Made by a program: the position numbers and the translations under genes. The notes below the pieces were generated by a model. The model saw only the letters and a program-made list of their open reading frames with translations, searched no databases and had not been told where the DNA came from. From a virus, in the IMG/VR virus record IMGVR_UViG_3300027798_006580: a DNA stretch of 64,000 nucleotides. One strand, written 5' to 3'. Shown here in pieces: positions 8,226-55,454 of the stretch; within the stretch, counting starts at the first letter, position 1; each line of letters begins with the position of its first letter.

Positions 8226-8471
8226 ATGAAAACAATTATTTTACTAACAGCAATTTTACTATCGGGGTGTAGTTCACTGAACGCAGTACTGTATAACAGT
8301 GCCAATGCTTGTTTAGAAGCACAGAAATCAATTAGTAAAGATTCTGCGATGACAGAAATTGCAAGATTAAATGCAATACAAGAAATAGCAAAAACTGCCA
8401 ACGACGAAACTAAAAGAACACTGTCGTCTCTAATAAATAATAAACGACAAACTGATATTATATGTAAATAA
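8226..8471 (+). CDS. Small lipoprotein
   Basis: Lipobox LSGC. Confidence 0.65.
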   Translation: MKTIILLTAILLSGCSSLNAVLYNSANACLEAQKSISKDSAMTEIARLNAIQEIAKTANDETKRTLSSLINNKRQTDIICK

Positions 8472-8477
8472 TAGTTA

Positions 8478-8815
8478 AGACTGTATGAAGTAGATTGAAA
8501 CGTGTCCTGGACGGGGGTGCGAGTCCCCCCAGGTCCACCATAAGGAGACTGTATGGATCCTGAAGTAAAATACCAATATGTATGTGGAATATTGAGTGTG
8601 ATTATTTTGGTATTTTTTATATTCTTTTTATGATGGGCCTGACATAGATTCGACAGGGCAAAGAGTAATGAAATGGACAGTCCGGCAATGTAGAAGCCGT
8701 TAGGATTGGGGCGACCCGGTCGAAGAAGCAAAACAAAGTAAACGCAAACGACTCACAGTTCGCATTAGCTGCCTAAACTCAGCTTAGGGTAAGACATACC
8801 TCGTAACAGAAAATC
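8478..8815 (+). ncRNA. ssrA: Circularly permuted two-piece tmRNA
   Basis: Acceptor piece ending CAGGTCC-A-CCA at 8540 precedes the 5' end GGGCCTGACATAGATTCGAC at 8635; G3-U70 pair; tag ANDSQFALAA* at 8744-8776; outer ends approximate. Confidence 0.92.
8553..8633 (+). CDS. 26-aa hydrophobic mini-ORF inside the tmRNA intervening segment
   Basis: AAGGAG RBS then MDPEVKYQYVCGILSVIILVFFIFFL*. Confidence 0.45.
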   Translation: MDPEVKYQYVCGILSVIILVFFIFFL

Positions 8816-8845
8816 AGAAACCCGCTTCGGCGGGTTTTCTTTTCT
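8816..8845 (+). terminator. Rho-independent terminator
   Basis: AAACCCGC-TTCG-GCGGGTTT plus T tract. Confidence 0.9.
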
Positions 8846-8894
8846 AATTAATTATAAAAATTTTAAAGAGTTCTTCACTGAGGCAGATGTATTG

Positions 8895-27624: not shown

Positions 27625-28384
27625 ACGAATTATATTAACATTTTGTTTGCTATTTGCAAACAGCGTATATGCCAACAGCTACGGGCTCTACGACTTTGAC
27701 AACGTTCGATATGAGCACAGCAGAAATACCACAGACGTCCGCAGTATTGCCAGCATAACAAAACTATTCACAGCTTACGCAGTTGTAATGAGTTTAGTAG
27801 ATTTAGATGAAAAAGTCAAAGTACAGGGGAAATCTTCTGGCAGATTTGCTCGTGGCTCTTATCTACAACGCAGTGAATTGATGCGGGCCATGTTAATGAG
27901 CAGTGATAATTTAGCCGCAGAAACATTGGCTCACGCCCACCCCGGAGGTTATGACAAGTTTATTGCAGACATCAATTGGCATCTCGGACTCAACGGGTTT
28001 AAAGAAACTAAAATTGTAGATCCCACAGGCTTACTGGCAGGCAATGTCAGCACAGTGGATGAACTAAAAGAGTTTTTGTTTATATTACGCAGGATAGATA
28101 TCATTAGATATTATAGCAGTGACAAAATATATTCGGTTAAATATCAACCACCAAAGAGTAAACGTACAATAACTATTCAATTAAGGAATACTAATCCACA
28201 GATTTTTACCTATGACAGTATTGTACTGACTAAAACAGGATTTACCAACGCCGCTGGCCGCTGTTTGGCCATGCTAGTAGAAAAGAATGGTGTGCTGTAT
28301 GCCATGATCACATTGGGTAACAAAGATGTCAGACAGCGCACCGGTGTCATCAACGAAATGTTCAACGTACATGTACATGACTGA
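27617..28384 (+). CDS. D-alanyl-D-alanine endo/carboxypeptidase (peptidase S11, PBP7-like)
   Basis: Signal peptide, SITK, SDN, KTG motifs. Confidence 0.9.
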   Translation: MFKRIILTFCLLFANSVYANSYGLYDFDNVRYEHSRNTTDVRSIASITKLFTAYAVVMSLVDLDEKVKVQGKSSGRFARGSYLQRSELMRAMLMSSDNLAAETLAHAHPGGYDKFIADINWHLGLNGFKETKIVDPTGLLAGNVSTVDELKEFLFILRRIDIIRYYSSDKIYSVKYQPPKSKRTITIQLRNTNPQIFTYDSIVLTKTGFTNAAGRCLAMLVEKNGVLYAMITLGNKDVRQRTGVINEMFNVHVHD

Positions 28385-28568
28385 AGTACGAGTGGATTGG
28401 CAAGCCGGAGACGATGTTCCCCTTTGGGATAAAAAATGTATCAGTGTGTTAGAACGTTTTGGATTGCCTGGCAACAAATACGAAACTCAACTTACTGAAG
28501 ATTATATGATTTTTCATTTCATCGATCCTGAAGATGCACTAGTAGCAAAGTTAATGCTGGGCGGTTAA
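28377..28568 (+). CDS. Small hypothetical protein
   Basis: FGLPG..F..DALVAKL. Confidence 0.6.
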   Translation: MTEVRVDWQAGDDVPLWDKKCISVLERFGLPGNKYETQLTEDYMIFHFIDPEDALVAKLMLGG

Positions 28569-29204
28569 TTCATTGACAAACTCTAACAAGAGATTGTGAT
28601 GATGTCCTTGATGCCAATATTCTTTAATATATTGTCTAGGCTCTTCATACCAGTACTGTTGACTCTCTGGATGGCATCCAATTACACCAATTCTGTTTTG
28701 TATGATAGCCATGGCATCTCCGTTGGCATAAGTGGCAACAGTTTTGAATTTACTAGTATCACCGACTAAGGCACATCCATCATAAAAGAACATTTTTTCT
28801 TGTTGGCCTTTCCAATTCACTGTGGCCACAGTTGAATAACTTCTACGAACATCTGCATTGGGTCTAGTGATATATTGTTTAGGTTCGACGCCGTCTAAAA
28901 TATCAAAGTAATTGCTACCTGCCCAATAAGCACCCATGCAAATTCCAAGATAGTATCCACCAGCGGCAACAAAGTCTGCTACTAGATTTTCCTTTTTTCG
29001 TTTAAAAAAGTTGTTATAACTTTCACTGTCCCCAATGCCTCCGGGAAAGGCTATGACGTCGGCGTTATCGAGCAAGTCTTGATTAAGTTCGTTTTCAGAG
29101 AATAAAGTGACATTATAATTATTACCCAGCGATTGTATGATTCCATCACAGCAGTCTTGCGAACATTCTGGATGATGCCTGAACAATACTATATTCTGCT
29201 TCAT
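28551..29204 (-). CDS. Class I glutamine amidotransferase-like (BPL_N-type) protein
   Basis: FPGG, GGYYLGICMGAY, HPE. Confidence 0.8.
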   Translation of the reverse strand: MKQNIVLFRHHPECSQDCCDGIIQSLGNNYNVTLFSENELNQDLLDNADVIAFPGGIGDSESYNNFFKRKKENLVADFVAAGGYYLGICMGAYWAGSNYFDILDGVEPKQYITRPNADVRRSYSTVATVNWKGQQEKMFFYDGCALVGDTSKFKTVATYANGDAMAIIQNRIGVIGCHPESQQYWYEEPRQYIKEYWHQGHHHNLLLEFVNELTAQH

Positions 29205-46999: not shown

Positions 47000-47394
47000 A
47001 AATCGGAACAAGTCTGGGCAAGTGTGTTAAAAGTATACTTGCCGGAGAAGTCAATGAAGAAGATGTATTGTTCGTTGTCAGCAATACAAACTGCCCTACT
47101 ATAGAAACATTAATGAATGTCATCGAACAATACTACTATGAACATCAAGGTAGTGGTAGAAGAGCTGCCTATGATATGAGCGCCTACAGCTTGGCCGATG
47201 CCTGTGCCGTTGCTCAACGTTTGTTTGAAAGCGGCAAGCTACATCAGCCTAGAGCAGTTGTCAAGGGCATGTATAGTAATGCTCATAGTTTGCAAGACAC
47301 TTGGTATGACATTGTACCTAGTCCTGTGTCAGATAATGAAAGTGTGCAGTCGGCGTGGAATCACTACACAATGATCAAAAGTCTTGCGGCATGA
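46996..47394 (+). CDS. Conserved phage hypothetical protein
   Basis: KIGTSLGKCVKSI..GKLHQPR. Confidence 0.7.
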   Translation: MKIGTSLGKCVKSILAGEVNEEDVLFVVSNTNCPTIETLMNVIEQYYYEHQGSGRRAAYDMSAYSLADACAVAQRLFESGKLHQPRAVVKGMYSNAHSLQDTWYDIVPSPVSDNESVQSAWNHYTMIKSLAA

Positions 47395-48005
47395 TTAACT
47401 TATTAGGTGAACTGCCCCAGCAACCAGTTATTGCTGTCAGCGGCGGTGTTGACAGCATGGCTGTGGCAGACTTTATTAGCCGTAGTAGAGAAATTAAATG
47501 TGCGTTCTTTCATCACGGCACACCGGCAAGTCAACTAGGATTTGAATTAGTATCGCAATATTGTGTGCATCGTAAATGGCCCTTGGCATTGGGACGTATT
47601 AGTAGCCCTAAAGTTAAGATAGAAAGCCTAGAAGAGTTTTATCGCAATCAACGCTATAGTTGGTTAGATACACTAGGCCAAGGTGTTATTACAGCACATC
47701 ATTTAGATGATTGTGTAGAAACTTATCTTTGGAGTATGATGCATGGAACTGCTAAAATAATTCCTTATCGTAGAAATAAAGTTGTTAGACCTTTTTTACT
47801 TACACCTAAAGAGGAACTAATTGACTGGGCTAATCGTAATCAAGTACCTTGGGTCAATGATGAAAGCAACAAGGATACAAAATTCATGCGTAATTATGTT
47901 CGTCATGAACTCGTGCCACATGCTGTTCATGTCAATCCTGGCTTGGCAAAAGTTGTAGCAAGGAAAGTAAAAGAAATTTATGAAAGCATTGACACAAATA
48001 TATAA
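47391..48005 (+). CDS. tilS: tRNA(Ile)-lysidine synthetase, catalytic domain only
   Basis: AVSGGVDSM, TAHHLDD, RPFL, DESN, RNYVR. Confidence 0.9.
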   Translation: MINLLGELPQQPVIAVSGGVDSMAVADFISRSREIKCAFFHHGTPASQLGFELVSQYCVHRKWPLALGRISSPKVKIESLEEFYRNQRYSWLDTLGQGVITAHHLDDCVETYLWSMMHGTAKIIPYRRNKVVRPFLLTPKEELIDWANRNQVPWVNDESNKDTKFMRNYVRHELVPHAVHVNPGLAKVVARKVKEIYESIDTNI

Positions 48006-48051
48006 ACCTGTTATAATTGCTACATAAATAAAAGTAGTATATAATTATTTA

Positions 48052-48128
48052 GGGACTCTAGCTCATTAGGTTAGAGCAGTGGACTCATAATCCATTGGTG
48101 CTGTGTTCGAATCACAGGAGTCCCACCA
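48052..48128 (+). tRNA. tRNA-Ile2(CAT), or Met
   Basis: Cloverleaf, loop CTCATAA, CCA; adjacent to tilS. Confidence 0.85.
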
Positions 48129-49828: not shown

Positions 49829-49904
49829 GCCCTTATAGCTCAGCTGGTAGAGCAACTGATTTGTAATCAGTAGGTCCGGTGTTCGAATCATCGTGGGGGC
49901 ACCA
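49829..49904 (+). tRNA. tRNA-Thr(TGT)
   Basis: Loop TTTGTAA, CCA; promoter at 49781. Confidence 0.9.
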
Positions 49905-49934
49905 AAATTAGTTTTTATGTTTACTCAAAAGTAA

Positions 49935-49963
49935 TTGACATAAAAGATAAATAAATGTATAAT
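49935..49963 (+). promoter_or_regulatory. sigma70 promoter upstream of leader/attenuator
   Basis: TTGACA-17 nt-TATAAT. Confidence 0.85.
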
Positions 49964-50012
49964 ATACACATACGCTAAAGAAAGCGTTAAGAAAGAAATT
50001 TTAGGAAAAGAT

Positions 50013-50138
50013 ATGCAAACGATTGTGAATCATAAACATTTTAATACATCCAAGCAGATGGGCTTAGTGCCGTCTATTTGGTTTATTAGCTATGATGATT
50101 CACAAGAGCGTATCGGGGTCCTGGAGACCAAAGTGTAA
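50013..50138 (+). CDS. Putative 41-aa leader peptide
   Basis: AGGA RBS; MQTIVNHKHFNTSKQMGLVPSIWFISYDDSQERIGVLETKV*. Confidence 0.55.
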   Translation: MQTIVNHKHFNTSKQMGLVPSIWFISYDDSQERIGVLETKV

Positions 50139-50162
50139 TAAGATTACATTTTAACTTCCAAG

Positions 50163-50197
50163 GACCCTAGGCTTAAAAACCCTAGGGTTTTTTGTTT
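50163..50197 (+). terminator. Rho-independent terminator with a competing antiterminator
   Basis: ACCCTAGG/CCTAGGGT plus T tract; 50115-50126 complementary to 50155-50168. Confidence 0.8.
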
Positions 50198-50210
50198 GCG
50201 AAAAGGAATT

Positions 50211-50375
50211 ATGACAGACGTAGATATTAAGAAACAAAAAGAAGCTGAGTGGATTCGACAGCATACGTTAACTCGAGAAGAAACTAAACAGTTGATTCTT
50301 AACAAATTTAAACGTGCTGAAGTCATGCACTTAGCTTTGAAAAAGCGGGAGATGTTTGTCAGCAAGCATCGTTGA
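50211..50375 (+). CDS. 54-aa basic small protein
   Basis: AAGGA RBS; MTDVDIKKQKEAEWIRQH..SKHR*. Confidence 0.55.
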   Translation: MTDVDIKKQKEAEWIRQHTLTREETKQLILNKFKRAEVMHLALKKREMFVSKHR

Positions 50376-50585
50376 TCGCAGAGTGTGTAATAAGAGCAGA
50401 AATGCCCAGGAAACGAGGTCCTGACATCGCACTATAAACATTGATGTAAACGGGCGGCGACTAGGATGGAATCCCTTGTGTGGGACTAAAAATTAGATCG
50501 TATTAAAGCATATTACTAAATTAAGGATGGTCCACTACATTGGCCTTAGTATGCTTTAATACACACATTCCAAAGAGTGTGTTTA
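50376..50585 (+). ncRNA. Candidate structured RNA
   Basis: Several helices including 13-bp GTATTAAAGCATA/TATGCTTTAATAC; no ORF. Confidence 0.45.
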
Positions 50586-50587
50586 AA

Positions 50588-51181
50588 TTATTCTTCGGGA
50601 TATGTTACTGTAATATTAGTATAATCGGTTCTATAATGGTGCCCGTGAAACTTATAATGCATGTGAGACCAGTTATATGGTTTTGTGGCATCAAATGGCT
50701 TTCCTATAGATAATGTTATTGGAGCAATCAGTTGACCCGAAGCTTCGTCAATTTGAATATACTTTTTTAAAGTATCCCAAGCTGACATTGCATGAATCTT
50801 GAAACTACAGCAGAAGCCAGTTAAATATCCTTGTTCAATTGCTAGCATGCCTAGTTTAGTTTGTAACCTGCCAATTTGCATCATTGAGTGCATATCGTTA
50901 TTTCTTTTTGGCGTACACAAGATTAATATAGGTGCTATTACCTGAGTATTAGTTTTCCATGCAAACTTAGGTAATTCATATTCGTGATTAGCACTTGAAT
51001 GAATTAATTTTATCTCTGATTCGTCGGTAATAACAAAACTGTTTATATCTAACTTTTCGTGAGAAATAAAGTCATCGTGTGTGTTTTTTATTAAATTCAT
51101 AAATTCACCGTCAAGCTGATTGTGAACATCAAAGGATCGTTGACATTTTTTAAATGTATCTTGTTTAATAAAATTATACAT
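50588..51181 (-). CDS. Nitroreductase-like protein
   Basis: CQRSFD..IG..AIEQGYLTGFCCSF..LSIG. Confidence 0.6.
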   Translation of the reverse strand: MYNFIKQDTFKKCQRSFDVHNQLDGEFMNLIKNTHDDFISHEKLDINSFVITDESEIKLIHSSANHEYELPKFAWKTNTQVIAPILILCTPKRNNDMHSMMQIGRLQTKLGMLAIEQGYLTGFCCSFKIHAMSAWDTLKKYIQIDEASGQLIAPITLSIGKPFDATKPYNWSHMHYKFHGHHYRTDYTNITVTYPEE

Positions 51182-51503
51182 TGATTATGAACCTCGCATT
51201 AATTTCATCGTCGACGACAAAAATTTCTTTAGAATAATTAAGTTTTTTATCAGTTAAGTAGTACTCTATAGAACCTATTGCAATGCCAGTGGCGTGCCAT
51301 TTTTCTATTAATTTTTGATAGTCTTCTTGATAGTTAGGGAATGGATTTACCACTCGATCTCCAAAAAAATCTAAAGTAGATGATATCTCTACTTTAATTG
51401 TAGAATTTGATATTGGAGATATGTTAGCACGAAAATATGTTTTTAAAAAACGAGCAGGGCTCCTTTTAAATATTTCGTTAAGTTCGGTGAATATCTCATT
51501 CAT
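51174..51503 (-). CDS. Hypothetical protein
   Basis: ORF coupled to the nitroreductase-like gene. Confidence 0.55.
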   Translation of the reverse strand: MNEIFTELNEIFKRSPARFLKTYFRANISPISNSTIKVEISSTLDFFGDRVVNPFPNYQEDYQKLIEKWHATGIAIGSIEYYLTDKKLNYSKEIFVVDDEINARFIINV

Positions 51504-51588
51504 ATAAATTATTAGTTTAATATATTTATTATTTTAATACACATATTGATCTGGCCTGGACTAAAATGTCGCAGACAGTATGTTTAAT

Positions 51589-51673
51589 GGAGATGAAGCA
51601 TCAATGGTGATGCAGTGGACTGTAAATCCGCCGCCTTAGGGCACGACTGGTTCGATCCCAGTAATCTCCACCA
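51589..51673 (+). tRNA. tRNA-Tyr(GTA)
   Basis: Loop CTGTAAA, long variable arm, CCA. Confidence 0.88.
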
Positions 51674-51679
51674 AATTTA

Positions 51680-51754
51680 GGTGCGTTCATATAACGGTTA
51701 TTATCTCGGATTGTCTATCCGAAGACGGGAGTTCGACTCTCCCACGCATCGCCA
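51680..51754 (+). tRNA. tRNA-Asp(GTC)
   Basis: Loop TTGTCTA, G73, CCA. Confidence 0.85.
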
Positions 51755-51757
51755 AGT

Positions 51758-51976
51758 TTTGTAAGTGTCAGCAAGTGAAGTCACGCTGTTCAGTATTCTT
51801 CGAAGGTACTGTCTAGTAAAAGGTTGCGGGTTCGATGCCCGACTGATCGCCTTCGTTGGTAATCGGTATACATTATGGCGTATCAGCTGGATGAATCCCA
51901 AGTGACGTACCGACTCCCGTCCGGACTAGTATAATCGGGTGAATGGTGCTGATAACGTGGTAGCACTACTTACAAA
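51758..51976 (+). ncRNA. Candidate ~220-nt structured RNA between tRNA-Asp and tRNA-Trp
   Basis: 9-bp terminal stem TTTGTAAGT/ACTTACAAA enclosing several hairpins. Confidence 0.6.
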
Positions 51977-51984
51977 TTCAATTC

Positions 51985-52058
51985 GTATCCATAGTGTAAT
52001 GGCAGCATCGCGGTCTCCAAAACCGTCAGTCTAGGTTCGAGTCCTAGTGGGTACGCCA
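51985..52058 (+). tRNA. tRNA-Trp(CCA)
   Basis: Loop CTCCAAA, CCA. Confidence 0.92.
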
Positions 52059-52091
52059 AATAAGTAATGCCAGTGTACTAAATAATAGACT

Positions 52092-53342
52092 ATGTCAAAA
52101 ACCAAATTCTCTCAAACTGTTATATGTCCAAATCCATGGACTGCAATGTATTTTCATATCAACTCTCCAAGTCCGTGCCATATCATAAGAAACGGTCTCA
52201 TGAACATGACCATGGAAGAGTATATAAACAGCGAGTGGTTAGTAGACATTAAACAAAAAATGATTAATGGCATACGCCCAAAAGAATGCGAAAATTGCGA
52301 AACGAAAGAAGGATTAGGTCTCAAAAGTACCAGGGGTGCTTCTTGGCGTTACTGGAACATAGGTGAAGAGCCCTATCTAGAAGATCAACCATGGTTTGAC
52401 GATATAACTGTTGATACTCCCACAAAGCCTAAACGAATAGAATTGAGATTTAGTAATTTGTGCAATATGAAATGCAGAATGTGTGACGAAACATCGAGTT
52501 CTGAAATTGCAAAAGAAAAACAAAAATACAATTTAGCCAGTAATGGTATTCATAATCCCGATAATATCTTTTTCGAAGACACTGACGACAGCGTGTTAAA
52601 AATTACTGATGATAATATTCAAGGTTTAAAGAATATCGAATTACTAAGTGAATTGCGTAAAGTATGTTTTACTGGCGGGGAACCATTTCTAATCAAAGGT
52701 TATTATGATTATCTTGATTTTTTAATTGAACACAAATTTAACGAGCAAGTTGAATTAGAATTATTTACAAATACAAGTGTATATAATAAACTGTTTGTAG
52801 ATCGTTTAATGAAATTCCCTAAAGTAGAATTTACCATGAGCATCGACGGCGTTGGTAAAACAGCTGAATACATTAGACACGGTACAAAGTGGGACACAAT
52901 TGAAAAAAATGTATTAACATTCAATTCTATGCCAAAGCCAATATTATGCTCGATAAATGTTGCAATTTCAGCTTATGTTTTGTTAGATGTATCTAATCTG
53001 GCATTATTTTTGATGAGACTATATCGTGAAAATAATAACATATTGATTAAATGTTATACTATATTAGTGCAAAGTCTTCGTTTTACATCTGCACCTGCAC
53101 ATCTCAAAGAACGTATGTTACGTGAAATTGATTTAGCAGTAGATATATTAGACTGTCCTAATTTTGCAATATTTAGAAATGAATTGCTGAATTTACGTCC
53201 GAAGGTGGTGAAGATGTTGAATGTTTCTAGGCCGCTCGATGAGAAGAACTTTATAGAGTTTACTCAAACATACGATAAGATTAGAAACGAATCGTTCGAG
53301 AATACATTTGGTATCCCGTTAATTTTAGATAAGGAAAAATGA
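52092..53342 (+). CDS. Twitch-domain radical SAM protein
   Basis: CNMKCRMC, TGGEP, YIRHGTKW. Confidence 0.9.
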   Translation: MSKTKFSQTVICPNPWTAMYFHINSPSPCHIIRNGLMNMTMEEYINSEWLVDIKQKMINGIRPKECENCETKEGLGLKSTRGASWRYWNIGEEPYLEDQPWFDDITVDTPTKPKRIELRFSNLCNMKCRMCDETSSSEIAKEKQKYNLASNGIHNPDNIFFEDTDDSVLKITDDNIQGLKNIELLSELRKVCFTGGEPFLIKGYYDYLDFLIEHKFNEQVELELFTNTSVYNKLFVDRLMKFPKVEFTMSIDGVGKTAEYIRHGTKWDTIEKNVLTFNSMPKPILCSINVAISAYVLLDVSNLALFLMRLYRENNNILIKCYTILVQSLRFTSAPAHLKERMLREIDLAVDILDCPNFAIFRNELLNLRPKVVKMLNVSRPLDEKNFIEFTQTYDKIRNESFENTFGIPLILDKEK

Positions 53343-53453: not shown

Positions 53454-53529
53454 GGGACTATAGCTCAGCCGGTAGAGCAGCGGACTTTTAATCCGTTGGT
53501 CGCGAGTTCGAATCTCGCTGGTCCCACCA
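53454..53529 (+). tRNA. tRNA-Lys(TTT)
   Basis: Loop CTTTTAA, CCA. Confidence 0.95.
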
Positions 53530-53601
53530 TATAGAAACACATTTTTTAACTAGGCATGCCTCTGCAAGGGTTTAACAGCAGTTTTAAGTGTGTTTCTATA
53601 T

Positions 53602-53676
53602 GGTGATATAGCACAGTGGTAGTGCATCCGCTTCATACGCGGCCGGTCGTTAGTTCAAATCTAACTATCACCACCA
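53602..53676 (+). tRNA. tRNA-Met(CAT), elongator type
   Basis: Loop TTCATAC; paired 1-72; no GGG/CCC anticodon stem. Confidence 0.85.
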
Positions 53677-53677
53677 T

Positions 53678-53753
53678 GGAGTTGTTAGTGTAACGGTTAA
53701 CACCACGGATTGTGATTCCGTTAATACGGGTTCGATTCCCGTACGACTCCCCA
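53678..53753 (+). tRNA. tRNA-His(GTG)
   Basis: G-1:C73 pair, loop TTGTGAT. Confidence 0.92.
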
Positions 53754-53762
53754 ATCAAATTT

Positions 53763-53838
53763 GCCGCAGTAGCTCCAATGGTAGAGCAGAGGATTGAAAA
53801 TTCTTGTGTTACTGGTTCAAGTCCAGTTTGTGGCACCA
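53763..53838 (+). tRNA. tRNA-Phe(GAA)
   Basis: Loop TTGAAAA, CCA. Confidence 0.92.
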
Positions 53839-53844
53839 AAATTT

Positions 53845-53919
53845 ACTCGATTCGTCTATCGGTTAGGACATCTGGTTTTCAACCAGGTAAGAGCGGTTCA
53901 ACTCCGCTATCGAGTACCA
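53845..53919 (+). tRNA. tRNA-Glu(TTC)
   Basis: Loop TTTTCAA, CCA. Confidence 0.9.
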
Positions 53920-53923
53920 TTTT

Positions 53924-54000
53924 AGCCTCATAGCTCAGTTGGTTAGAGCAATGTGTTGATAACGCATAGGTCCTCTGTTCGAGTCAGAGTGAGGCTACCA
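53924..54000 (+). tRNA. tRNA-Ile(GAT)
   Basis: Loop TTGATAA, CCA. Confidence 0.92.
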
Positions 54001-54002
54001 AG

Positions 54003-54146
54003 TTTCGGGATAGACGATGGGTTCGAGTCCCTGTCAATCTAGTCACAGTGGGGTTAACTGTGATGACACTATAGTATGATTGATGGGTGTATAAACTTGC
54101 CTATACGAGACACGCTAGTCTATAGTACAAAGACTAGTTCCTGAAA
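54003..54146 (+). ncRNA. Candidate ~145-nt structured RNA with a T-arm-like hairpin
   Basis: Terminal stem TTTCGGGA/TCCTGAAA; GGG-TTCGAGT-CCC; further helices. Confidence 0.55.
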
Positions 54147-54156
54147 ACCTTTTTAT

Positions 54157-54230
54157 TCCCGGGTAGTGTAGTGGCAGCACAACAGACTTTGACTCTGCTA
54201 GTATAGGTTCGATTCCTATCCCGGGTGCCA
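54157..54230 (+). tRNA. tRNA-Gln(TTG)
   Basis: Loop CTTTGAC, G73, CCA. Confidence 0.9.
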
Positions 54231-54237
54231 AAAAAAT

Positions 54238-54313
54238 GCGGCTGTAGCTCAGTTGGTAGAGCATCACGTTGCCAACGTGAATGTCACCGGTTCGAACCCG
54301 GTTAGCCGCTCCA
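54238..54313 (+). tRNA. tRNA-Gly(GCC)
   Basis: Loop TTGCCAA, U73, CCA. Confidence 0.95.
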
Positions 54314-54319
54314 AATAAA

Positions 54320-54407
54320 GGAAGTGTGGCAGAGTGGTCTATTGCAACAGTCTTGAAAACTGTCGGGTCGAAAGGCTCCGTGAGTTCGAATCTCACCGCT
54401 TCCGCCA
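54320..54407 (+). tRNA. tRNA-Ser(TGA)
   Basis: Long variable arm, loop CTTGAAA. Confidence 0.95.
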
Positions 54408-54443
54408 AAAATAAAAAAAGCATATTTGACCTTTAAATACACG

Positions 54444-55373
54444 ATGAAACAACCTATTAAAATTATTCCCAAAAAACCAGTTATAAATATATACTGGAAG
54501 CTCACTGATTTTTGTAACTTTAAATGCAATTACTGTCCTAGTTTCTTGCACAGCGGAAAGTATGCCAATGGAAAATTACCAGGCTTTCCAATTTATTCTG
54601 ACATTATAATTTTTATGGACAAGCTGAAAGCTGTGGCAGCTTCCGGAACGCATTTAAATCTTCAGTTTGGTGGTGGCGAACCGACATTGCATCCTAATTT
54701 CCTTGACATTATAAAATATATGAGTGTAGAAAATGTTTATCTAGGTGTCACTACCAACGGATCTAGAAGTGATGAATGGTGGAGCGAAGCTTTGCCATTT
54801 TTAGATAATGTAACAATGTCCCTTCATCCAGAGTTTACAAAGATAGATAAAGTAAATAATCTGGCAAAATCTATAGTAGAGTCCGGCACTTCGATATTGT
54901 TCAACCTTAGTTGCGATCCTGACAGATGGGATACTGTATTAGAGTTATACGACAATATAGATGATTATTTGAAACCAATGGTAACTACAAAAGTTCTAAA
55001 TTATTTAGAAACAACTAGAGAAAATTATTCTTATACAGATGAACAAACCGCATGGATTAAAAACCACATTGCGAATCCGTCATCATCCCGTGGCTTTATT
55101 AACTCAGTGATATATTTCGACGACGGATCAGCTGAAAATTTAGTCCTGGGTAAAATTACTATCAATAATTGGAATGAATTTAAAGGTTGGAAATGTAAAG
55201 TAGCTAGTCAAAGTTTAGTGATTGATTTTAACGGAAAAGTCAATGCCGGAATATGTAATGCTAAATCTCTGGGTCACATAACTGATTTTAATTTAGATAC
55301 TAACTATCTAGCCTGTCCATTTAAATATTGTACTTGTCCGACTGATATTAGGTCTGAAAAATATAAAATTTAA
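54444..55373 (+). CDS. Radical SAM protein with C-terminal Cys-rich region
   Basis: CNFKCNYC, GGGEPT, TNGS; paralog of 13031-13882. Confidence 0.88.
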   Translation: MKQPIKIIPKKPVINIYWKLTDFCNFKCNYCPSFLHSGKYANGKLPGFPIYSDIIIFMDKLKAVAASGTHLNLQFGGGEPTLHPNFLDIIKYMSVENVYLGVTTNGSRSDEWWSEALPFLDNVTMSLHPEFTKIDKVNNLAKSIVESGTSILFNLSCDPDRWDTVLELYDNIDDYLKPMVTTKVLNYLETTRENYSYTDEQTAWIKNHIANPSSSRGFINSVIYFDDGSAENLVLGKITINNWNEFKGWKCKVASQSLVIDFNGKVNAGICNAKSLGHITDFNLDTNYLACPFKYCTCPTDIRSEKYKI

Positions 55374-55377
55374 CCCG

Positions 55378-55454
55378 CGGTCCTTAACTCAATTGGATAG
55401 AGTGCCAGTCTTCGAAACTGGAAGTTGGGAGTTCGAATCTCTCAGGGCCGGCCA
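55378..55454 (+). tRNA. tRNA-Arg(TCG)
   Basis: Loop CTTCGAA, CCA. Confidence 0.88.

Follow-up and report, generated by a model that had tools for sequence, protein, structure and literature searches.

A putative multivalent leader-peptide attenuator ahead of a phage tRNA array

Upstream of 13 tRNA genes on the same strand, the phage DNA analysed here carries an element that is probably a multivalent, ribosome-coupled transcription attenuator, by which the phage would exert feedback control on its own tRNA array. The sequence of the element and its computed folds both point to this reading. As read from the related sequences, the real signal in the leader is its match to the amino acids of the tRNA array, while other amino acids, such as Leu and Ala, are freely lost from it. 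The window (the whole stretch of 64,000 nucleotides that was analysed) is part of a virus record of 111,576 bases, estimated to be 31% complete. Homologous loci were found on contigs of 338 and 360 kb, therefore the record is probably part of a jumbo phage genome.

Results

Anatomy of the element

The preliminary description of this DNA had listed a promoter at 49935, an AGGA sequence, a 41-codon ORF and a terminator, and all of them are present (Table 1). It had also proposed that the late leader codons pair with the 5' arm of the terminator, making two exclusive helices. This pairing was seen, as 12 bp with one bulge between 50115-50126 and 50156-50168, and it closes an inner hairpin of 10 bp. 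The stem of the terminator is formed by 50163-50171 and 50181-50189, with six T from 50188, and was not flagged by the terminator scan because its loop is 9 nt long. The folding of the leader on itself is also real, with 50023-50033 pairing with 50095-50105 (z -3.9), and the whole leader folds at -77.2 kcal/mol (z -7.4 against shuffles).

Table 1. Features of the putative attenuator and of the region downstream, in window coordinates
Feature	Position	Strand	Remark
Sigma70 consensus promoter, TTGACA-17-TATAAT	49935-49963	+	12/12 match
TAAATA late-type motif in promoter spacer	49948-49953	+	
AGGA of leader	50003-50006	+	Shine-Dalgarno-like
Leader ORF, 41 codons	50013-50138	+	Predicted sensing zone, codons 2-32
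Long hairpin inside leader	50023-50105	+	Possible pause or stabilising structure
Antiterminator, last leader codons and terminator 5' arm	50115-50168	+	Inner hairpin 50130-50152 across stop codon
Intrinsic terminator	50163-50197	+	9-bp stem, 9-nt loop, T tract
Gene for 54-aa basic two-helix protein	50211-50375	+	First gene behind switch; no family assignment
Structured non-coding RNA	50379-50585	+	Crossing (pseudoknot-type) helix pair, covarying stems
First tRNAs: Tyr(GUA), Asp(GUC), Trp(CCA)	51589-52058	+	
TAAATA late-type motif	52079-52084	+	Ahead of inserted radical SAM gene and last ten tRNAs
Remaining tRNAs: Lys, Met, His, Phe, Glu, Ile(GAU), Gln, Gly, Ser, Arg(UCG)	53454-55454	+	

The leader was correctly counted in the preliminary description as using 18 amino acids and 29 codons, and we agree that it has no run of a single amino acid; the means per leader are 1.0 Trp, 1.5 His and 1.2 Tyr. 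Both counts are at chance level for a 41-codon leader (P=0.29-0.36 for amino acids and 0.63 for codons). Diversity was therefore rejected as evidence for sensing.

Folding behaviour of the switch

The leader was folded with the nucleotides under a ribosome masked, which gives equilibrium folds of a kinetic process and assumes the size of the ribosome footprint. The probability of the terminator in the window was 0.02 without a ribosome, below 0.1 with the A site at codons 2-32 and above 0.9 from codon 33. Masking the end of the leader, which had been suggested as a check, thus flips the RNA to termination at about codon 33. Sharp switching was found in about 25 of 39 homologs, and in about six homologs equilibrium folding prefers the terminator at nearly all ribosome positions. 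In nascent RNA the 5' arm of the terminator was captured, with a probability of 1.00, in 33 of 38 loci. The leader hairpin excludes the antiterminator strand, and there is no 1:2 helix to block the antiterminator in untranslated RNA. Failed initiation should therefore also give read-through, and super-attenuation is not predicted for this element.

Conservation of the element in relatives

The loci of the relatives were gathered through the downstream 54-aa protein and not through the leader, so that no selection was made on the leader itself. All loci that extend far enough upstream carry the promoter, the leader ORF, the antiterminator and the terminator, giving 40 distinct leader sequences. 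The leader ORF is open in all 40, at 37-47 codons, while of the two remaining frames one is open in 2 leaders and the other in none. Its stop codon lies 66-75 nt upstream of the 54-aa gene in loci without an insertion, and pooled pN/pS in the main clade is 0.54 for the leader, compared to 0.31 for the 54-aa gene. A sigma70-type promoter is found at the equivalent place in the relatives, in many of them with TAAATA or TAAGTA in the spacer. Initiation at the leader would be either by a Shine-Dalgarno sequence or near-leaderless among the 40 homologs: AGGA is kept in the main clade, and in other clades the ORF starts within a few bases of the predicted +1.

In the homolog alignment, 99.6% of the cells of the terminator are paired and three pairs show compensatory change. 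For the antiterminator, the count from the plain alignment (77% paired) is blurred by shifted registers, therefore its pairs were scored as duplexes locus by locus. In 40 of 40 homologs the best pairing partner for the 5' arm of the terminator is located 3-22 nt ahead of the leader's end, and in 39 of them it outscores shuffles of the leader codons. A compensated variant of the antiterminator is found in L032 and L033, and L004, L006 and L058 have it in a different register. The conservation of the ORF frame, the stop position and both helices, which the preliminary description had put forward as a check, was accordingly found across the 40 distinct leaders, with covariation in the terminator and with the antiterminator rebuilt in other registers. 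Its wider proposal of a trp/his-like switch between terminator and antiterminator, coupled to the ribosome and placed ahead of the tRNA array, is supported by this conservation.

No structure conserved column by column was found for the body of the leader in the homolog alignment; the z score of the leader hairpin is negative in all 40 leaders, and a role in pausing RNA polymerase is only possible. The leader peptides have many in-frame insertions and deletions, and from clade to clade their C-termini show no relation. Recurrent features are Lys-Gln and a single Trp, in varying order, the Trp preceding Lys-Gln in one clade and following it in others. The leader peptide gave no family matches and no distant relatives. 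The search found neither a cultured phage carrying the element or the 54-aa gene nor a bacterial genome carrying the element, and no second copy of the element in the same genome.

Match between the leader and the tRNA array

As the gated array we took all tRNAs between the 54-aa gene and the following sigma70 site; this was done for 18 loci. All 26 amino acids that are absent from a leader also have no tRNA in the array of the same locus. When leaders and arrays were paired at random, the mean was 8.5 mismatches and zero was never reached in 100,000 shuffles; the 18 loci are mutually related, and reduced sets gave P=2e-5 and 5e-4. Array amino acids occur in their own leader in 200 of 200 cases, compared to 163 expected from phage proteins (Met left out), while non-array amino acids are at chance level (116 of 142, with 121 expected). 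Of the earlier interpretation, the ribosome-coupled switch is supported, but codon diversity as the signal is not, since diversity is at chance level and the leader tracks the amino acids of the array.

The same pattern is seen for single amino acids. Trp and His are both present in 40 of 40 leaders (52% and 63% expected, respectively), while Leu is in only 24 of 40 (97% expected) and Ala in 25 of 40 (91% expected). The leader of the window itself lacks Ala and Cys. The Leu tRNAs are outside the gated array in 18 of 18 loci and the Ala tRNAs in most. The tRNAs missing from an array are often elsewhere in the same genome, therefore the pattern is not one of genome-wide avoidance. Asp and Glu appear stepwise: L052 has neither in leader or array, L058 has Asp in both, and L060 has both amino acids in both.

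At the level of codons, ATA is present in 13 of 13 leaders with tRNA-Ile(UAU) in the array, compared to 5 of 19 without it. It occupies five different positions among the leaders and tracks tRNA-Ile(UAU) even between very close relatives; for example, the window has ACA at codon 12 and no tRNA-Ile(UAU), while its closest relatives, L001 and L010, have ATA at this codon together with the tRNA. By independent contrasts, four pairs were well supported, with 3.7 going the same way and 0 the opposite way (p=0.125), on trees that are short and poorly resolved. Matching at the level of the anticodon holds for Ile(UAU) and Arg(ACG/GCG). It was rejected as a general rule, since Lys(CUU) is accompanied by AAG in 0 of 3 cases and Arg(UCG) by its strict codon in 2 of 11.

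The match also has looser parts. Three leaders have no internal Met despite a CAU tRNA in the array, the predicted sensing zone leaves out 9 of the 200 array amino acids (Arg33 of the window included), and 24-26% of the codons in the sensing zone of the window have no tRNA in the array.

Downstream genes and RNAs

The 54-aa protein has 328 homologs and a predicted two-helix fold (pLDDT 91), with invariant Trp14 and Arg35, and received no assignment in Pfam, PHROG, PDB, BFVD or Atlas. Its gene always follows the attenuator, either directly or with an inserted ORF between the two, as in L022, where this extra ORF has 125 aa. By eye this inserted ORF (about 1800-2500 of L022) is HNH-like, and it has its own TATAAATA motif.

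The structured RNA and the tRNA array are found downstream wherever the contig extends far enough. Counted from the start of the 54-aa gene, the array begins after about 340-500 nt, with a larger distance at loci with inserted genes. The crossing helices of the RNA are 92% paired with five compensated pairs, and its other parts are a hairpin with an AACGAG loop, an invariant GGGCGG, a covarying junction and a long stem with a variable tip. A boxA-like stretch exists but is paired. Against Rfam, only tRNAs in 49900-52100 matched at gathering score or with a meaningful E-value, with no riboswitch or T-box leader among the matches.

Several smaller features were observed between these parts. Two ORFs of 197 and 109 aa, accompanied by a TAAATA motif at 51528, have been inserted in antisense orientation between the structured RNA and the first tRNA (50588-51503, minus strand); their transcription would oppose a read-through transcript. 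Just before tRNA-Tyr, at 51550-51585, is a small element with a GGACT..AAATGTCGCAGACAG core; in many relatives, this element is part of the structured RNA, at the tip of its last stem. Between tRNA-Asp and tRNA-Trp, 51760-51980 is non-coding, with complementary ends and a T-loop-like stretch, and has no tRNA or Rfam call.

Other promoters and the reach of the switch

No other consensus sigma70 promoter had been noticed before the tRNAs, and the best other site ahead of the 13 tRNAs indeed matches at only 9 of 12 positions; however, the late-type TAAATA motif at 52079 has to be added. TAAATA is the hexamer most enriched upstream of the ORFs of this genome (6.8-fold), and we take it to resemble the core of T4 late promoters. 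Judged by its sequence and place, the copy at 52079 is likely to be a late promoter that could free the last ten tRNAs from the switch; late in infection, the greater part of the array may therefore escape it. TAAATA also occurs at 51528 on the opposite strand. Among the relatives, a sigma70 site immediately precedes the first tRNA in L004/L005, L018, L021 and L025. The switch stands at the head of the array, but the claim that it controls all 13 tRNAs is weakened, in its exclusivity, by the motif at 52079 and by the second sigma70 promoters of the relatives.

Discussion

Proposed mechanism

The transcript from the promoter at 49935 would carry the leader ORF, the last codons of which can pair with the 5' arm of the terminator. 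According to the computed folds, the antiterminator would be intact when the ribosome is at codons 2-32 or absent, and the terminator would be unmasked when the ribosome is at codon 33 or beyond. With ample charged tRNA, the ribosome would keep up with RNA polymerase and cover 50115-50126 before the terminator is complete, and transcription would stop near 50190. With slow reading of any matched codon, the polymerase would continue through the 54-aa gene and the structured RNA to the tRNAs, and the new tRNAs would restore decoding and close the loop. As each amino acid has only one to few codons in the leader, the switch is expected to respond when one tRNA is severely depleted or when slowing is general, and not when limitation is mild. 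In models of attenuation, leaders with a low fraction of regulatory codons respond poorly unless these codons are read very slowly (PMC1183508).

Host defences that cleave tRNA (PMC11555353, PMC11464382) are a plausible trigger, and tRNA decay during infection or starvation may be others. The 54-aa protein and the structured RNA may have roles in antitermination or processing. A more far-reaching version, which we put forward tentatively as an open possibility, is a self-test at the level of codons. The leader would co-evolve with the array down to single anticodons, as with ATA and tRNA-Ile(UAU), and destruction of any one host tRNA by a defence nuclease would induce the set of replacement tRNAs. 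In this version, the 54-aa protein and the pseudoknotted RNA would be further dedicated parts of an undescribed inducible counter-defence cassette.

Alternative explanations

It is unlikely, in our view, that the element is a real attenuator which senses translation capacity in general (free ribosomes, initiation, antibiotics or toxins), with an incidental codon content and a match to the array that reflects shared ancestry. This would be nearest to the version in the preliminary description. The geometry does turn any stall before codon 33, or failed initiation, into read-through, and the sensing-zone codons of the window with no tRNA in the array would be expected of such a sensor, as would the several homologs that contain all 20 amino acids; the test on independent pairs is also underpowered. 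However, diversity is at chance level and yet the array amino acids are always present while the others are not, and ATA, at its five positions, follows tRNA-Ile(UAU) even among very close relatives, which speaks against such a general sensor.

The terminator could also be a fixed leaky stop, or one overridden by a phage factor such as the 54-aa protein with the structured RNA, in which case the leader RNA would be an sRNA and late or internal promoters would set the output of tRNA. The high stability of the leader RNA, the late-type motifs at 49948 and 52079 and the separate promoter before the first tRNA in some relatives are in line with this, as is the phiKZ tRNA operon, which is preceded by a terminated leader of 141 nt without an ORF (PMC10914365). 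We nevertheless consider it improbable, because it leaves unexplained the frame that is open in 40 of 40 leaders, the stop codon fixed relative to the helix, the pN/pS of the leader and the match to the array. In addition, the untranslated RNA is predicted to read through, and the inner pairing of the leader is not conserved as that of an sRNA would be. It is very improbable that the product of the leader is a small protein with a function of its own, or a TnaC/ErmCL-type arrest peptide that senses a ligand and stalls the ribosome through the nascent chain. The moderate purifying selection and the recurrent Lys-Gln and Trp could be taken in its favour, but the variation in length, the many in-frame insertions and deletions, the unrelated C-termini, the changing place of the Trp relative to Lys-Gln, and the lack of family matches or distant relatives all speak against it.

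Comparison with known systems

The putative tRNA-array attenuator is probably of the trp/ilv type in its working, judging from its sequence, and lacks three features of that family: the amino-acid run, the super-attenuation helix and a biosynthetic target, which is replaced here by tRNA genes. The trpL, hisL, leuL, thrL and pheL leaders and the multivalent ilvGMEDA and ilvBN leaders (PMC1183508) likewise have a leader ORF and an exclusive antiterminator and intrinsic terminator. Their regulatory codons are also tied to the product of the controlled genes, and slow decoding leads to read-through, as predicted here. They differ in controlling genes of amino-acid biosynthesis or synthetases, compared to a phage 54-aa gene, a non-coding RNA and tRNAs, and in having a run or strong enrichment of one to three amino acids, compared to about 13 amino acids with one to few codons each. 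In trp, segment 1 sequesters the antiterminator (PMC1183508), while there is no such segment in this element, and the leaders described here, at 37-47 codons, are longer than those of the trp/ilv type. Arrest leaders such as TnaC and ErmCL have a conserved nascent-chain motif at a fixed stall distance, unlike this element.

In Bacillus subtilis, bmrB-bmrCD (PMC4191407) likewise combines a small ORF with alternative stem-loops, and impaired translation leads to downstream transcription. Induction of bmrCD, however, needs translation of the leader and answers ribosome-targeting drugs, while the untranslated state is predicted to read through here and the codons follow the tRNA array. In function, the closest parallel is the trn operon of Anabaena, an array of 26 tRNA genes induced by translational stress (PMC8421152, PMC10272220), which is also on when translation is impaired. 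Unlike the element, it is controlled at initiation by a DNA-binding repressor, TrcR, and the words leader, attenuat- and terminator are absent from PMC8421152.

A related case in a jumbo phage is terminator T131 of phiKZ in the 5' region of PHIKZ302 (PMC10914365), where premature termination ahead of a tRNA cluster was measured as a 141-nt RNA and a full-length form. Its leader is described only as a candidate non-coding RNA, has no ORF with a ribosome-binding site and shows no likeness to the element by eye; as it has no ORF, it was rejected as the same element. The region of the 141-nt RNA (7952-8170 of L065, minus strand) has two hairpins with C/U-rich loops and the terminator, and may represent another kind of conditional switch for tRNA genes, in a phage that has been cultured. 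In PA5oct, promoters sit directly before the first tRNA.

Work on phage tRNAs against retron-Eco7 and PrrC (PMC11555353) gives a reason for a phage to have its own tRNAs when those of the host are destroyed; it reports a strong promoter and never mentions attenuation. The same reason, phage tRNAs as counter-defence, is given for PARIS (PMC11464382) and in the anticodon-nuclease hypothesis (PMC10264068). A literature search, with most subscription journals outside its reach, found no published description of a leader-peptide attenuator of tRNA genes.

Implications

Why phages carry tRNAs has been an open question for over 50 years (PMC10264068), and published work has treated phage tRNAs as cargo behind strong promoters. 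If the proposed attenuator is real, phages could make tRNAs on demand when decoding fails. This would favour replacement of lost tRNA over static codon compensation and make the question testable. Leader-peptide attenuation, known from biosynthetic operons, would also gain tRNA genes as targets, and a compact genetic sensor of tRNA depletion would become available. As the content of the leader predicts the tRNAs that follow, it could be used as an aid to annotation.

Other features of the genome

The whole record encodes 27 tRNAs (default ARAGORN). A second tRNA array (Leu, Ser, Val, Asn, Ala, Glu and others) was observed outside the window, on the minus strand of C1 (G000:C1, about 27850-29180); it has two tandem sigma70 promoters and a non-coding stretch of 300 nt, with no comparable leader-terminator unit by eye. 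At 47355-48128 of the window, a TilS-like gene is located upstream of a CAU tRNA that has a promoter of its own. This tRNA is probably tRNA-Ile2, while the CAU tRNA at 53602 resembles elongator Met and another one, outside the window, shows the initiator C1-A72 mismatch. Among cultured phages, PA5oct, MIJ3 and Paride are closest when judged by the TilS gene (43% identity).

A permuted tmRNA at 8427-8867 of the window matches the betaproteobacterial family, with a tag ending in FALAA, and this match suggests a betaproteobacterial host. Near the tRNA region of two relatives (L060, 644-1315; L061, 8703-9374), release-factor-like genes with PCRF and RF-1 domains are apparently split into two ORFs, as in frameshifted prfB.
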